Virus record (IMG/VR): IMGVR_UViG_3300033145_000529 | Location: 64,001-128,000 of that record | Source of the DNA: a virus | Direction: 5' to 3' (one strand) | DNA length: 64,000 bases | Part shown: piece after piece, positions 3,322 to 46,334 of the stretch | Layout of the letters: each line of letters opens with the position of its first letter | How positions within the stretch are numbered: position 1 is the first letter of the stretch | The notes under the pieces: generated by a model | What the model saw: the letters and a program-made list of their open reading frames with translations, nothing else | The model's database searches: none | Told to the model about the DNA's origin: nothing | Position numbers and translations under genes: made by a program

Positions 3322-6300
3322 TGGTAGAATCACAATTTATACCAGGGCAACAAGGTGGAAGTCCTATGAGTCATACGTTGTTTATGAAACAGTATGAAGA
3401 ACAAAAGAGAAAACTAATTGAAAATACTGCGTTGTTTCAAAAATATGGCTATTCTCAAGCAGAGTCAGCTAAAATGTCTCATCAGATGGTTGATGCCAAC
3501 AAAAGAAACATTGCTAGTTTTAATGGGATGACAGAAAGCATGGGTAAGGCTGTTCTAAAAGTTACTTTGTGGATGGCAGCTATTAGTGTAGTTCTTGGTG
3601 CGATGAAAAAGGTGGGGGAGGTTATAGAACTGTGGAAAGATTTAGAGGTAACTTTAGAAAGGATTGGTATTACAACTGGTGAAATTGGTCTTGGTCTTTA
3701 CCAATACTTTGAGAAGACTGCTGATGTTGCCATTGCTATGGGTATGCCTATCCAAAATACTCTTAGGGGTATGGATTTGGCACTTAGAGCAACAGCTTCA
3801 TTAGAAAACCAAGTGGTGCGAACAGCTACAGCTACGATGATGTTGAGAGATGCATCTATTCTTGGTAATGTTGCTGGTATGAATTTTGACCAAGCAATTG
3901 ATATTTTAGTAGGTTCTTTGCGTCAGACTGGTATGGAGCTTGACCAAGGAATTATTCTTTTAGATAAGTGGGTAGCGGTAGCTAGAAATGCGGCTGTATC
4001 AGTTAATGATTTATCACAAGGTTTTGCTATTATGTCTAGTGCTGCTGCTTCTGCTGGTGTAAATATTGACCAAGTTAATGGTATTATTGCGGCATTGAGT
4101 GAGTCTGTAACATTAGGACCTATTGAGGTTGGTAATGCTATTAGAGCGTTAATGGCAACTATTTATAATCCAGGGTCAATTAAAATTATGTCACGGTATG
4201 GTGTTGCTGTTAAAGATGCTACAGGGGAATTGAGGTCATTTTGGGACATTATGACTCAGTTATCATCAATGGTAGTAACGGGTGCTTTGGATGAAAGTCA
4301 AATAATGGAAATTGCTAAAGCTGCTGGTGCTGGTCAGAGACGTTATGCTCAATTTATTGCTCTTTTACAGAACTGGACAAATGCGATGAGGGCTGCTGAT
4401 ATTTCTGCAAACGCACAGAATGAGGCTTTAAAGGCTAATCAAAGAATCGTTGATACTCTTACTAATGCTTATGACCAATTTACGGCGGCACAAAATAAGT
4501 TCTGGTATGCTTTTGGTGAAAAGAGTGGGATTATAGGTGATATGACACAAGCGTTTCAAGGATTTGCCAGTCTTTTTAACAATATTTCTGGTTGGAATGA
4601 AGGTCTATTTAAGACTTTGAAAATTTTGATGGAAATTGCTGCTGCTCTAGCTATTATTAAAGTTTCCATGATCGGTTGGGCTAAGCTTCAGGGTATGGGT
4701 ATTGGTGCAGGAATGGGTGGATTTTTTGGAATGGGTAAATATCCAATGGCTGCTGGTGCTGGAGCACCAGGGTACTATGACACTACTCAAGGTGCTAGAG
4801 GGGCACCTCTGTATGTGAGGGGAACTCCCCCATCGGGAGGGCAGGCTTTTGGTAGGCGTATGATTACACCTAGTCGTGGTGTAGCGGGAATTGCAGGTGC
4901 GGGTATGGTAGGTGGTCTTATTGCTGGTGAGATAACACAATCTACTTTAGGTGCGTGGGGAGGAGGTATAGGAGCTGGTATTGGTATGGCTTTAGGTGGT
5001 CCTGTAGGTGCTGCTGCGGGGGGAGCGATTGGTGCTGTTATTGGTAAAGCTATTGAGGATTCAGCAAGGACTGTTGAAGACATATTAAAAGGAGCTATGG
5101 AAGATTTTCTTGAGTCAATGCCTGCCGAGCTTAGAAGTGCTCTTACTCCAGGTATTCGTGATATATCACTTGCTGGTTTTGCGGCTGAACCTATATCAGA
5201 AGAAGAATTACCATATGCAGAGGCGTTAGAGAAGGCTAGAGAAACGATAGAACTTCAAGAAAGAGCTATTAAAACAGGTGGTACGGCTTGGGAAAAGTTT
5301 TCAGTAAATTTTACTGCTATTAGAGCGGCTATGGAAGCTTTAAGTAGTGAAGGATTTGCTGCTTCTTGGGAAATAATGCAGAAAGAGACTGGAACGTGGG
5401 TACGTGACGAAGCGGGAGAGTGGATTACGTTAACTGAACTTCATACAAGACAGTTAGATGCTCTACTACCAAAGGAACAGCAGATTAAGGATATACGGGA
5501 CGCTCTACTCAATAGTGATAAAGAAGCATTAAGTTTAGAGGATGAATTAGCAGTAAGGGCTAAGGATATTAGAGTTGAAGAAAACACTCAGTTAGTGGTT
5601 AACCGTGAGATTAACAAGTTAAAGGAAAAATCGTTAGATATAGGTACTAAGGAATTTTTACTTCAAAGGAGTCAAATTGAGTCTTCTCAAATAGCTTATT
5701 CAAATCTTCAAGCACAAATTGAAAGGTTTGCCCCCCAAGAGTTGCCTAGATTTAGACAATTAGTTCCAGATTTTGGGGCATTTATGCAATTTGAACCTGG
5801 TGCATACCAACCGTTACAGGAAGTATTAGCTACTCAAATTAGTATAACTAAGCAACAAGAAGAGGGAGTGCTTGCTATGAAGCAATTAGAGAGATATTGG
5901 GTAGCTCTTCCTGGTTTTAGTGCTACTTATACTACCAATCTTGAGGATATTTTAGCTCAAGAAAATTATTGGTCTGCTTTGTCAAAAGGCTTATTGGCAG
6001 ATGACATAGAAGCTATTGGACACTTGGGTAGAATTAATGAGTTTCTCCAGGAAAAGGGGGTACTCACTAAAGACTTAACTGCGGATGAGATGACCAGCAT
6101 ATCATTATTAGTAGCAGAGGGTGTGGAACACGCTAAAATTGTAGATCTATTGCAAAGAGAATATGACATAAATAACGATATGCTAAAAGATACTATGGAG
6201 TATATGCCACGTTATAAAACACCAGGACAGTTTGCGTTCTTACAAGGAATAGATGCGGGAAAGATTCAATCACTACTAGATAAATATAACACAATGTTTA

Positions 6301-31083: not shown

Positions 31084-31341
31084 ATGTTTAATAATATTAA
31101 GAATGCATATAGGGTTTTGACTAATAAATTATATGAACAATACGAACATCATGGAAGTGTTGTTTGGGTTAGAAAGGACTTAAAAGGTAAGCATAGAGAT
31201 TATTGTCTTTGTCATAGTTGCGAGAGGTTTAAACCCGCAGAAAAAAATTGTGTGACTGCTAATCTAGTGTTTGCTGTATGTAAAGAATGTGATATGGTTC
31301 TACCAGTTTGGGAATGCCCTTTCTTTGCTAAAAAGGCTTGA
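31084..31341 (+). CDS. Cys-rich hypothetical protein
   Basis: SD, follows promoter. Confidence 0.65.
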   Translation: MFNNIKNAYRVLTNKLYEQYEHHGSVVWVRKDLKGKHRDYCLCHSCERFKPAEKNCVTANLVFAVCKECDMVLPVWECPFFAKKA

Positions 31342-31366
31342 CAACTAGTCTTTTATGTGGTATAAT
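31335..31366 (+). promoter_or_regulatory. sigma70-type promoter
   Basis: GGC-TTGACA-N17-TATAAT with TG. Confidence 0.85.
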
Positions 31367-31377
31367 ATAAGTAGAGA

Positions 31378-31827
31378 ATGAAGAAATTAGTAAAATGTAT
31401 AGATTGTGGTGTGGAGAGGTTGGTAAGAATTAGGAATGGTAAACCTGTTCATGAAAGATGTTGTAAATGTTCAAACGAATTGAAAGCGATGTTTGGTGAG
31501 AGTAACCCTAATTGGAGGGGTGGACGTATTGAACACGATGGTTATACTATGATTAGGGTTTATCCTGAAGATAGGTTTTATTGTATGGTAAAATCAGAAT
31601 CATTTCCCTATGTTATGGAGCATCGTTTATTACTGGCTGAGTCTATTGGTAGACCATTGAGACCAGATGAGAAGGTTCACCATGATAATGAGCTACGGAA
31701 GGATAATAGAGTGGCTAACTTTGAATTGACAGATAATGGTGGTCATGCTGTCATTCATAATTTGGGGCATCATCCCAAAGCAAATCGGATTCCACCAAAT
31801 AATTTTGGTAAGAGGTACAATAAGTGA
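31378..31827 (+). CDS. HNH homing endonuclease
   Basis: NPNWRGG, YVMEHRL, VHHDNELRKDNRVANFEL. Confidence 0.85.
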   Translation: MKKLVKCIDCGVERLVRIRNGKPVHERCCKCSNELKAMFGESNPNWRGGRIEHDGYTMIRVYPEDRFYCMVKSESFPYVMEHRLLLAESIGRPLRPDEKVHHDNELRKDNRVANFELTDNGGHAVIHNLGHHPKANRIPPNNFGKRYNK

Positions 31828-32102
31828 AAATTAGTCAGGCATTACAAGCACAAAAAGCTCTCAATGCGGAGATTTCACACTTGAGAGGGTTAGAGTCCCA
31901 AAAAGCATGGTCGTATAGGTCATTAGAGACACCTAACGCTGAAATGAAATCAAATTTTGATTTTGACAAGAACCATGAGACCATCAAGAAACTGTCCCGT
32001 TTGCACACAAAGCTTGGACAGGCAATTTCGAGAACGAATCTTGAGTTGGACTGTATTGGTCTTGATGTAAAGGACCTTGTGGAACTGGGGGAGTGGATCT
32101 AA
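31824..32102 (+). CDS. DIP1984/septicolysin-like coiled-coil protein (tentative)
   Basis: MKISQAL..QK.L N terminus and L..AI..TN C terminus. Confidence 0.5.
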   Translation: MKISQALQAQKALNAEISHLRGLESQKAWSYRSLETPNAEMKSNFDFDKNHETIKKLSRLHTKLGQAISRTNLELDCIGLDVKDLVELGEWI

Positions 32103-32118
32103 AGTCTACTTCTCTACC

Positions 32119-32272
32119 AGCCTACTGATGGGGGAATTGTAGATTTTTGCACTGTTACAGTTATCTACTGTGTAGCACATCGGTAAAGAGGCGAAGCAGA
32201 AGGGTTTCTCGTGTATGCGTGTAATTGTGTATTCGTGTTTAGCGAGAATCTCTCTTCTTTCCACAGTAGGCT
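32119..32272 (+). ncRNA. putative structured ncRNA with 8-nt repeat loop
   Basis: closing stem AGCCTACTG/CAGTAGGCT; inner stem GGTTTCTCG/CGAGAATCT enclosing 4x YGTGTWWN. Confidence 0.6.
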
Positions 32273-32276
32273 CAAT

Positions 32277-32352
32277 GCGTCTATAGTGTTTAATGGTTTT
32301 AGCACATCACGCTTCCAACGTGATAGTCAGAGTTCGAATCTCTGTAGACGCT
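32277..32352 (+). tRNA. tRNA-Gly(TCC)
   Basis: cloverleaf; anticodon loop CTTCCAA. Confidence 0.92.
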
Positions 32353-32356
32353 CGAA

Positions 32357-32836
32357 ATGATTGGAGCAGTAGGTTATTGGGAGTCAAATGAGCGAAGTCC
32401 CTTTTCTGGTCGAATAGCGGATTTTGGACGTTGGGTTAATCAGTTGTATGCCTTTGGGCTAGATGCATTGCTTCTAATTGGAGCTGAGGGAGCAAAAACA
32501 CTTGGGTCAGTACAATCTGGTGCAGTTGTTGTCAGTTGGATGCAAAAATTAGAAGAAGCATCAATTACTTATCCCCAAGCAACAAGGGTTTTTGTGGAGC
32601 ACAGAGGAATAATTCCAGGAGATATCAAGTATGAATTTCTCCATAATTTTAATCATCCACAAGGAGATGTAATTTATTTCTTTGGTGCGGATTCAATGGT
32701 AACTGGTTTACCTGTAATTACAAAAAAAGATAAAGTTGTAACTATTTCATATCCGCATGAGGATGTCGCTCTATATGCTCAAGAGGCGTTGACTTGTGTC
32801 TTATATGATAGGATGGTAAAGAGTTTAAGTGGTTAA
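32357..32836 (+). CDS. SPOUT-fold RNA methyltransferase-like protein
   Basis: L..F.HP..DVIYFFG.DS..GL...V.I...LYA.EA...VLYDR (SpoU/TrmL-like). Confidence 0.65.
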   Translation: MIGAVGYWESNERSPFSGRIADFGRWVNQLYAFGLDALLLIGAEGAKTLGSVQSGAVVVSWMQKLEEASITYPQATRVFVEHRGIIPGDIKYEFLHNFNHPQGDVIYFFGADSMVTGLPVITKKDKVVTISYPHEDVALYAQEALTCVLYDRMVKSLSG

Positions 32837-33113
32837 AAGGTTGAAAGAAATCCAAATTCGACCTAAAATAGCGGAACATGACTTCCAAACTAAGCTTCGT
32901 GCAATAAGAAGAATTTTGACCAGGAGCGAGGTTAAAGTTCAAATTTTCTTTCGTGGCAGGGAATTTACTCACCTCGAAATTGGAATTAATCTATTGCGTA
33001 GAGTTATCGAAGAGACTAGGGATATCGCTAAGGTAAAGGCAAGGCACGAGAAGGACAACCGATTTTTTATTATTTTGGTGTCCAATGGTCAAGAAACCTT
33101 GCGAACAGTATGA
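32829..33113 (+). CDS. infC: translation initiation factor IF3, C-terminal domain only
   Basis: LKEIQIRPKIAEHDFQTKL...VKVQIFFRGRE. Confidence 0.85.
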   Translation: MVKRLKEIQIRPKIAEHDFQTKLRAIRRILTRSEVKVQIFFRGREFTHLEIGINLLRRVIEETRDIAKVKARHEKDNRFFIILVSNGQETLRTV

Positions 33114-44372: not shown

Positions 44373-46334
44373 ATGGAGTCAACAATTAAATTATTTAGAG
44401 CACTACCAATAACAACTAAGGAAAAGAAGTTTGATGAAAAATTGATGGAAGCAACCATTAAGCATGGCTTTGTATTTGCACCAGAGATTGTTGCTAACTA
44501 TTCTAACTATGATGAATTGATTGAAAAAGTTGAAAGATTAGTTGGGGTAAGCTCTGAGCAAATGAATAGTTCGTTCCACAAGGCTTGGGCTAAGGTTAGA
44601 AACACAGGTATGGAACAATTAGTAGTAGAACAGATAGCACACTATCTGACTACCTATGGCAAAGAGAACCCTGAAGCATATCTGATTGAAAAGGGTATAC
44701 AGTGGGGTGTTGATGACCTTTCTGATAAGGTGTCAAATCTAGATGACATAGAATTAGATAAAGTCCAAGATGCTAACTATGTTTATATCCCTAACGAGGT
44801 ACTTGACATACCAGATGTAGAGTTGGATACGATTAAACTTATCGTAATCAAAGGATACACAAAAGCTGAACTAAAGGGCAAGCTGCTTGCTTTGTTAGGA
44901 CTTGGAGTTGCTTTGGGGGAAGATACGATACAAGCTGTTGTAGAGGTAGCCACGTTTGTCGGAGTTGATGACAAAGATATTGAAAAGGTTAAGAACAAGG
45001 AAGTAAATACCGCCTTGTATGACTACTTAGGTCTTTTTCCAGAAAATCCAGTTGCGTTTTTAAGGTTTATTGTTTTCAAAGCAGCAAGTAAAACGCTTTT
45101 GATAAAAGATTATAATTTGATTCAAGCGATTAGGGAAAGCAATAACTTGAATGTAATTAAACTATTTGATGACTACGAAAAGAAATATGGATTAGAAAGG
45201 TTAGCTGAGATATTTAATAGGTTCAAACCACTTTTCTTAGCTTTTAGAACAAATGAAAGACTCAAGGTAGTAGTTAATAGGATAAGAAGACTTGCTGTGA
45301 GATACCACAAACCTCTTCCAGAAGATTTCCTTAACACTGTTACAGCTAGGGTAGGAAATAGTGAGAAGATAACCCAAGGTAAATTACAATCTGAACTGAG
45401 GAGAGTAAATGTCTTCAGGAAGATACGATTAGCTTATGCACTAAAATTTAGGACAAAAGACGTGGATTCTATTTTATATAGGATAAGGAATGGTAAGGGA
45501 TATGCTACTGAGTTCACCTTCGGCAATCAGACTGAAGCTCAAAGAGTATTGGACATTGTATTAGACTCAATTGCCCGTGATGTTAGTAAGAATGTAAAGG
45601 ACAAGAAAATATACATTCCAGAGCATATAAATTATAGTCTACCCGCAACTGAGAAGCAGTTTACTGGTAATTTCCCATCAGGAACTTGTGTGTCACTAAC
45701 TGATAATATGATTGCTGGTATCAATTGGCATAACGTTAAACACAATAGGATTGACCTTGACCTGTCTTTATTATCAGTTACAGGTAAAATTGGTTGGGAT
45801 TCTTCTTATAGAACAGAAGAAGGTGATGTGCTATTCTCTGGTGATATGACTGATGCTTGTAACGGAGCATCGGAACTTTTCTATGTTAAGAAGCAGACTA
45901 AGAAATCGTTTATAATATTCGTTAATTACTATAATTTTGACGAGGCTATAAAAGTACCGTTCAAGATATTAGTTGCACATGAGGCTACTAAGAATCTTAG
46001 AAAAAATTATATGGTTGACCCTAATAATGTTGTAGCAATTACCGAATCAAAAATTGACCAGAAGCAAAAAATACTGGGGTTGCTAATCGTTACAACAACA
46101 GGAAGCAAGTTTTATTTTGTTGAGGCAAATATAGGCAGGTCAATAACATCAAGTGGTACTGAATTTGCCACACGAAGCAGAAAGTATCTACTAGACTTTT
46201 ATGAAAACACTATTATGTTAAGTGATGTTCTTACTAAAGCTGGTGCTAAACTTGTTGGTGACAGGGATGAAGCAGATATAGACTTATCACCAGAAACGCT
46301 TGAAAAGGATACCATATTAACTATGCTTAGGTAA
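44373..46334 (+). CDS. large helical protein with C-terminal TerD-like domain (possibly Ro/TROVE-related)
   Basis: IDLDLSLL...IGW...FSGDMTDA.NGASE; N-terminal Q..HY.TTYG helical region. Confidence 0.7.
   Translation: MESTIKLFRALPITTKEKKFDEKLMEATIKHGFVFAPEIVANYSNYDELIEKVERLVGVSSEQMNSSFHKAWAKVRNTGMEQLVVEQIAHYLTTYGKENPEAYLIEKGIQWGVDDLSDKVSNLDDIELDKVQDANYVYIPNEVLDIPDVELDTIKLIVIKGYTKAELKGKLLALLGLGVALGEDTIQAVVEVATFVGVDDKDIEKVKNKEVNTALYDYLGLFPENPVAFLRFIVFKAASKTLLIKDYNLIQAIRESNNLNVIKLFDDYEKKYGLERLAEIFNRFKPLFLAFRTNERLKVVVNRIRRLAVRYHKPLPEDFLNTVTARVGNSEKITQGKLQSELRRVNVFRKIRLAYALKFRTKDVDSILYRIRNGKGYATEFTFGNQTEAQRVLDIVLDSIARDVSKNVKDKKIYIPEHINYSLPATEKQFTGNFPSGTCVSLTDNMIAGINWHNVKHNRIDLDLSLLSVTGKIGWDSSYRTEEGDVLFSGDMTDACNGASELFYVKKQTKKSFIIFVNYYNFDEAIKVPFKILVAHEATKNLRKNYMVDPNNVVAITESKIDQKQKILGLLIVTTTGSKFYFVEANIGRSITSSGTEFATRSRKYLLDFYENTIMLSDVLTKAGAKLVGDRDEADIDLSPETLEKDTILTMLR

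Follow-up and report, generated by a model that had tools for sequence, protein, structure and literature searches.

Sequence comparison indicates that RNA X, an element of 154 nt in the phage DNA analysed here, is a genuine and previously undescribed structured RNA family of a large-phage lineage. As judged from the relatives, RNA X is a rod of about 25 bp (helices P1, P1b and P2) that ends in a junction, and this junction is predicted to carry a variable hairpin (P2a), a conserved hairpin (P3/P4) and a G/U-rich single strand of 35-46 nt. The element lies between a small gene for a 92-aa protein and a tRNA-Gly gene (Table 1).

The window, the stretch of 64,000 nucleotides that was analysed, comprises bases 64001-128000 of a 148,197-bp IMG/VR phage record rated complete by CheckV, and the window carries 27 tRNA genes together with genes for a tape-measure protein and a ribonucleotide reductase. 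The RNA X loci were fetched from IMG/VR, JGI metagenomes and other assemblies via homologues of the 92-aa protein. Copies were obtained from 30 distinct related phage loci and two distant ones (L283 and L284), all of which are members of one phage lineage located through the neighbouring small gene. The phages bearing them are uncultured, with genomes of about 135-150 kb, and were sampled in metagenomes of sediment, groundwater and landfill. RNA X is single-copy in each of the three complete or near-complete phage genomes examined. A stricter scan of IMG/VR with an RNA-only pattern returned known contigs only. Scans of IMG/VR and GTDB with short-core patterns gave chance matches only, none of them with flanking P1 motifs, and were discarded.

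Table 1. Features of the RNA X locus. Positions refer to the window, except for the Y-RNA-like arrays, which are given in the coordinates of the respective loci.
Feature	Position	Strand	Description
Sigma-70-type promoter	31338-31366	+	TTGACA, 17 nt, TATAAT, with TG; 12/12 consensus positions
HNH endonuclease gene	31378-31827	+	PHROG HNH families, best E-value 1.5e-17
Small ORF, 92-aa protein	31824-32102	+	GTG start; predicted helix, beta hairpin, helix, helix
RNA X, whole element	32119-32272	+	154 nt; covariance model R1 score 153.9 bits
P1, 5' strand	32119-32127	+	AGCCTACTG; pairs with CAGTAGGCT at 32264-32272
P1b, 5' strand	32130-32134	+	pairs with 32258-32262
P2, 5' strand	32141-32150	+	AGAUUUUUGC; long-range pairing with GCGAGAAUCU at 32242-32251
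P2a, short hairpin	32151-32161	+	ACUG, UUA, CAGU; variable length and sequence
P3/P4 hairpin domain	32164-32204	+	P3, 32164-32171 with 32196-32204
P4	32175-32178 with 32188-32192	+	loop AUCGGUAAA
Unpaired GAA in the P3/P4 domain	32193-32195	+	
G/U-rich single-stranded segment	32205-32241	+	four octamers, GUGU x4
3' strands	32242-32272	+	P2, 32242-32251; P1b, 32258-32262; P1, 32264-32272
tRNA-Gly(UCC)	32277-32353	+	ARAGORN and Rfam tRNA, 56.1 bits
Y-RNA-like arrays	L002 3283-4129; L036 1442-1944; L275 4277-4899		upstream of rsr

Conservation and secondary structure of RNA X

The covariance model R1 matched 30 distinct loci with E-values from 5e-06 to 2e-36, and the distant copies in L283 and L284 scored 22-23 bits with the filters off. 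Across the family, the element measures about 155-180 nt. The reverse-strand covariance scores reached only about 17 bits and, because these scores are weak and G-U pairs are abundant, RNA X is assigned to the plus strand. The identity of the relatives to the window copy was 0.55-0.90 for RNA X versus 0.41-0.72 for the third codon positions of the adjacent gene, and RNA X was the more conserved in 8/8 comparisons. These results indicate purifying selection on the RNA itself. The single-sequence fold z-scores (-2.2 on the plus strand and -1.6 on the minus strand) are unremarkable, and the case for RNA X is therefore made by comparison with its relatives.

At gathering scores, the sole match of Rfam 15 in the window was tRNA, and RNA X matched nothing. 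With E-values up to 10, a search of positions 31700-32500 gave only noise overlapping RNA X (ST7-OT3_4, 12.6 bits); the families covered include 6S, SRP, tmRNA, YrlA, the L20 leader, PyrR and ribozymes. Likenesses seen by eye to the hammerhead (CUGAUGA), SRP domain IV and PyrR, as well as to a D-arm, 16S h23 and the L20 leader, were rejected, as they had no Rfam support and the motifs concerned are not conserved.

In an unbiased MAFFT alignment of 22 sequences, the five helices P1, P1b, P2, P3 and P4 fit with 91.5% paired cells, compared to 84.0% after shuffling and 44-49% with the partners slid, and changes on both sides were seen at 16 pairs. In the model-fitted alignment of 30 sequences, which is biased towards its own structure, 90.9% of the cells were paired (41-47% in the slid controls), and 26/35 pairs exhibited changes on both sides.

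For P1, the pairing of AGCCTACTG with CAGTAGGCT, which had been noted earlier as closing a 154-nt element, was confirmed from the sequence and covaries among the relatives: the eighth pair is UA, UG or CG, and the third pair changes from CG to UA or AU. The P1 core, GCCUAC/GUAGGC, is nearly invariant. For P1b, both-side changes were also observed (one pair, for example, is GC, AU, GU or UG), and in L027 the helix is replaced by GAGAAU/AUUCUC. For P2, about 89-91% of the cells were paired, with both-side changes at most pairs, and the helix is compensated in L017, L025, L026, L029 and L002. The length of P2a differs among the sequences of alignments A3 and A5, and the presence of a local hairpin there was judged by eye in each sequence. 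For P3, 97% of the cells were paired, with both-side changes at 6/7 pairs, and for P4 98% were paired. Within the P3/P4 domain, the loop motif GU(A/G)(A/U)AGAG and the unpaired GAA are conserved in sequence. A pseudoknot in which the conserved 5' flank CCUCUCUACC pairs with the P4 loop GGUAAAGAGG was considered as well. The two segments are complementary, but 70.4% of the cells were paired versus 70.6% after shuffling, with one both-side change, and the pseudoknot was dropped for want of covariation.

The earlier note had placed two other arms inside the closing stem. Across the relatives, the first of these (GTAGAT/ATCTAC) had only 69.5% paired cells and overlaps the covarying P3, and the outer part of the second (GAAG/CTTC) had 60.6%. 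The inner part of the second arm (TTTCTCG/CGAGAA) held up better, with 82.2% paired cells, but it is partnerless in L026 and L029, in which P2 is compensated. By this comparison, the two inner arms are weaker than P2 and P3 and do not represent the best-supported fold. In the window sequence, the noted fold and the minimum-energy fold have energies of -50.5 and -50.6 kcal/mol, respectively, and the noted fold may be an alternative conformer of RNA X. According to duplex energies, the GCGAGAA segment can pair isoenergetically in P2 or in TTTCTCG/CGAGAA in the window's subgroup. Because these two pairings compete at equal energy, part of the fold may take either form, and RNA X may switch between conformations. 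Neither candidate fold pairs the G/U-rich stretch.

In the window, this stretch holds the four octamers CGTGTATG, CGTGTAAT, TGTGTATT and CGTGTTTA at 32210-32241, as had been read from the sequence before. GTGT occurs four times in a 37-nt stretch, versus 3.6 times per kb genome-wide, so that GUGU is enriched about 30-fold. Among the 30 homologues, the segment is 35-46 nt long, with a G+U content of 59-84% and a C content of 5-18%. It contains 1-5 GUGU motifs (median 3, n = 30) at spacings of 2-24 nt, the commonest arrangement being 22,8 and others including 8,11,8 and 16. The 8,8,8 phasing on which the earlier note relied is present in the window copy and is shared by no relative. What the family conserves is therefore the presence of several GUGU motifs on a G/U-rich strand and not their phasing, and with the number and spacing of the motifs this variable the proposed TRAP-like geometry fails. 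Of the broader idea that phased single-stranded repeats are bound by a protein, the phasing is lost, whereas the unpaired G/U-rich segment with its GUGU motifs is kept family-wide and fits protein recognition. Overall, the unpaired parts of RNA X that are conserved in sequence are the P4 loop, the GAA, UUUCUCGUGU and the repeated GUGU.

The small gene, the tRNA and the Ro60 neighbourhood

RNA X begins 16 nt past the stop codon of the small ORF, as stated in the earlier note. For the 92-aa protein, 70 homologues were found at at least 60% identity, with 24 invariant residues, and a full-library profile search yielded only 12 clusters at 50% identity. The AlphaFold2 model (mean pLDDT 73.7) contains a helix at residues 3-23, a beta hairpin at 27-43, and helices at 47-70 and 82-91. 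The median pI is 6.3 and the net charge about -1, with helix 47-72 at net +4. The label "DIP1984-like", which had been given to this protein, did not survive the searches: no NCBIfam match was obtained at E-values up to 1, no such match in Pfam, and no sequence relative in the PDB. Nothing significant was found in Pfam, NCBIfam, PHROGs or PDB sequences, and the Pfam family DUF6549 appeared only below threshold (20.6 bits, E-value 4.6e-4, gathering cut-off 27.4 bits). For the structural model, the best Foldseek E-value was 0.59 (6vy1), the weak top rows being prefoldin subunits. The VIA-align Z scores were at most 8, all for generic helical hairpins, and a protein atlas search gave no informative relative. 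These results suggest that the protein adopts a generic helical-hairpin fold, with no assignable family or fold.

The small gene lies 5' of RNA X in all 32 loci. A similar RNA was found downstream of the homologous genes in 30 loci and in 2/3 of the distant homologues examined (L283 and L284), the distant homologues of the ORF having profile E-values of 1e-17 to 1e-30. Since the downstream RNA is kept and Rfam gives no match to it, both at gathering scores and at E-values up to 10, two expectations of the earlier note hold, namely that homologous genes carry a similar RNA and that this RNA belongs to no unrelated Rfam family. From these loci, the linkage between the gene and RNA X is judged stable across the whole known family. 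All of the loci share descent, however, and the linkage is therefore not independent evidence and no proof of a physical partnership. In L282, the distant ORF homologue is followed by a 324-nt intergenic region (1578-1901), in which neither an RNA X match nor a tRNA was found and which contains an end-paired stem and two UUGAUUGUA units. This region may be a very divergent or replaced counterpart of RNA X.

The promoter at 31338-31366 most likely drives the ORF, RNA X and the tRNA. No terminator-like site was found between it and the tRNA, and in 16 relatives a near-consensus sigma-70-type promoter lies 21-44 nt 5' of the small ORF. In the window, the promoter and the small ORF are separated by an HNH gene, the stop codon of which overlaps the GTG start of the ORF; the gene is missing at this position in L001, L002 and most other relatives. 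Because the promoter of the relatives lies directly 5' of the small ORF, the HNH gene of the window is read as an insertion. It looks like a homing-endonuclease insertion, is lineage-specific, and belongs to the context outside the RNA X element.

The distance of 4 nt to tRNA-Gly that had been noted was borne out, with the stem ending at 32272 and the tRNA starting at 32277. A tRNA-Gly is found 2-5 nt 3' of RNA X in 24/30 loci. In L034, RNA X starts 1 nt after tRNA-Ser and, in L276, 11 nt after tRNA-Met. In the distant copies, the tRNA 3' of RNA X is tRNA-Leu (L283) or tRNA-Met (L284). In L275, no tRNA follows RNA X, and an IF3 C-domain gene begins 11 nt later; RNase P would therefore not always be what sets the 3' end of RNA X. 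In L035, an extra hairpin-forming insert of 72 nt (387-458) separates RNA X from tRNA-Gly. The region after tRNA-Gly in the window (32357-33113) contains a 159-aa ORF, for which no Pfam, NCBIfam or PHROG match was found, followed by a gene for a stand-alone IF3 C-terminal domain (Pfam IF3_C, E-value 3.6e-22). An IF3 C-domain gene is located at most about 600 nt 3' of RNA X in the window, L002, L275, L277 and L281. Elsewhere in the window, a 653-aa ORF after two tandem stem-loop motifs (44373-46334) gave no Pfam or PHROG match.

Three relatives, namely L002 (whose genome is complete and has terminal repeats), L036 and L275, have an insert of about 2 kb that separates the small ORF from RNA X. 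In this insert, an array of 4-6 tandem Y-RNA-like units precedes a gene with TROVE plus vWA domains (Ro60/Rsr). Each unit starts with (U)AGUGGYG(A/U)AGA..GAGUUACUUCG and ends with UCGCUUGUUCCCUA, and one unit per array has a tRNA-like module with a weak match to the Rfam YrlA model (30 bits), reported by ARAGORN as 'tRNA-???'. An rsr gene on the same strand within about 4 kb was found in these three loci only, and the window phage is not among them. In L284, a hairpin starting with GGUGGCGAGGAUCGU lies just 5' of the distant RNA X copy (3370-3425) and resembles the 5' motif of the Y-RNA-like units; no rsr is visible in this short locus. The Ro60/Y-RNA neighbourhood of RNA X is suggestive.

Candidate functions of RNA X

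The explanation that we consider best, with somewhat less than even confidence, is that RNA X is co-transcribed with its neighbours, excised by tRNA processing, and serves as a platform to which a protein binds, via the P3/P4 hairpin and the G/U-rich strand. The strong sigma-70-type promoter would transcribe the 92-aa gene, RNA X and tRNA-Gly together. RNase P would then cut 2-5 nt beyond the closing stem, where the tRNA begins, and the released RNA would be trimmed back to that stem, the rod of about 25 bp formed by P1, P1b and P2 protecting its ends. The recognition surface would comprise the P3/P4 hairpin and the G/U-rich single strand of about 40 nt with its several GUGU motifs, and RNA X would act, as a scaffold or sponge, on an RNA-binding protein of the host or the phage. 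As the number and spacing of the GUGU motifs are variable, several protein contacts fit better than one antisense target. A search of the phage genome for RRM, cold-shock (CSD) and S1 domains found none.

The protein bound could also be encoded next door: the 92-aa helical protein might oligomerise and bind the GUGU repeats, which would make a dedicated phage ribonucleoprotein. We regard this as unlikely, though deserving real weight. The gene lies 5' of RNA X in every locus, including the distant ones with a different downstream tRNA, and would share one promoter with it. Helix 47-72 is positively charged, with many invariant polar or basic residues, and the order helix, beta hairpin, helix is typical of oligomerising proteins, to which the weak prefoldin rows from Foldseek may be added. 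Conversely, the protein as a whole is near-neutral and matches no known RNA-binding family or fold, the number (1-5) and spacing of the GUGU motifs that it would read are not conserved, and in three relatives about 2 kb of DNA, with the Y-RNA array and rsr, stands between the gene and RNA X. The linkage, moreover, stems from shared descent, and L282 may have the gene without RNA X. Less likely again is the further proposal that RNA X and an oligomer of the 92-aa protein, reading GUGU on the rigid rod, constitute a previously unknown phage ribonucleoprotein acting on host RNA metabolism or translation, a role beside which the tRNAs, the IF3 C-domain gene and, in some relatives, the Ro60 gene and Y-RNA arrays of the locus can be named. 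Alternatively, RNA X could act in cis within the polycistronic transcript, either by stabilising the upstream mRNA at its 3' end or by serving the tRNA as a spacer or processing signal, and have no function once released. RNA X always has a coding gene or tRNA on one side and a tRNA or gene on the other, with spacers of 1-31 nt on most sides, and a long terminal helix at a 3' end made by RNase P would stop 3' exonucleases. A stabiliser, however, needs no conserved three-way junction, no invariant loop or bulge sequence, and no conserved single strand of 40 nt, and RNA X is unchanged whereas its upstream neighbour varies (small ORF, rsr or tRNA), which makes a role confined to the transcript improbable.

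The setting of RNA X in the rsr-encoding relatives raises the possibility, in our estimate a decidedly improbable one, that it is a Y-RNA-like partner of a phage- or host-encoded Ro60/Rsr, tethering or gating Rsr and PNPase. In 3/3 of these relatives, RNA X begins 8-23 nt past the rsr stop codon on the same strand, and its 5' and 3' ends pair in a long covarying stem (P1, P1b and P2). In addition, RNA X of phages without rsr contains G(G/A)CGAAG, which matches GNCGAAN0-1G, a motif proposed for Rsr recognition that lies near the 5' end, in the Rsr-binding stem (PMC4201824); the CGAA motif has also been used in PMC12135203. In RNA X, however, GGCGAAG is not close to the 5' end but internal, on the 3' side of P4/P3 (32190-32196), and the motif is absent exactly in the rsr-adjacent copies L002, L036 and L275 (GACUAG, GAAACG). 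The end motifs that mark the true Y-RNA units of the arrays are also missing from RNA X, the Rfam YrlA model does not match it, and no TROVE match was found in the window genome or in G001. With the motif misplaced, or absent beside rsr, and with neither Y end motifs nor TROVE, RNA X is therefore not filed as a Y RNA. We see a very slight chance that RNA X is instead a base-pairing small RNA, the G/U-rich strand of which would be directed against C/A-rich sites in host or phage mRNAs. A long, accessible and conserved single strand would suit such a role, as would UUUCUCGUGU, which is nearly invariant in most members. The remainder of the strand, however, varies in motif number and spacing, and the phage genome contains no complementary site longer than 10 nt, the 9-10-mer complements being at chance level.

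Relation to known RNAs

Few structured noncoding RNAs are known from phages, and most of these have no known function. With a covariation-backed architecture, strongly conserved unpaired sequence and a fixed place heading a translation-related operon (tRNAs and the IF3 C-domain gene), RNA X is a defined and testable candidate for an RNA with which a phage captures an RNA-binding protein of its own or of its host.

Among such RNAs, GOLLD and ROOL are large and ornate and often occur in prophages near tRNA genes (PMC5737381, bioRxiv 10.1101/2024.12.08.627333). Like RNA X, they are structured noncoding RNAs associated with phages, have no assigned function and tend to adjoin tRNA genes. GOLLD and ROOL, however, measure 500-800 nt and form multimeric cages, whereas RNA X, at about 155-180 nt, matches neither Rfam model.

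For the small RNAs CsrB/RsmZ, which sequester CsrA, and for the leaders with (G/U)AG repeats that TRAP binds, the likeness to RNA X lies in a repeated short motif in unpaired RNA on a structured scaffold. The motif of RNA X is GUGU, in contrast to GGA for CsrA or (G/U)AG for TRAP, and its 1-5 variably spaced copies are located on one junction strand, not in hairpin loops nor in an 11-fold phased array.

The Y RNAs of bacteria and phages (YrlA, YrlB and Yrn1, and Yrl1 and Yrl2 of phiLo), to which Ro60/Rsr binds, share with RNA X a long stem that pairs the ends. The same-strand adjacency to rsr in three relatives and the CGAA-containing heptamer in most copies are further points of likeness. Unlike YrlA-type Y RNAs, RNA X has no tRNA-like module and no Rfam YrlA match, and the window phage is without Rsr.

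The tRNA cluster of T4 encodes stable RNAs (species 1 and 2, rnaC and rnaD) that are small and structured, lie beside phage tRNA genes and have no known function. These stable RNAs share a transcript with the tRNAs, from which the enzymes of tRNA processing release them. Compared with these RNAs by description only, RNA X differs in having its own covarying architecture and a G/U-rich strand. Its position is T4-like, with a tRNA 2-5 nt downstream in 24/30 loci and 1-11 nt upstream in two. RNA X would add a family to the few stable RNAs known to be excised via tRNA processing.
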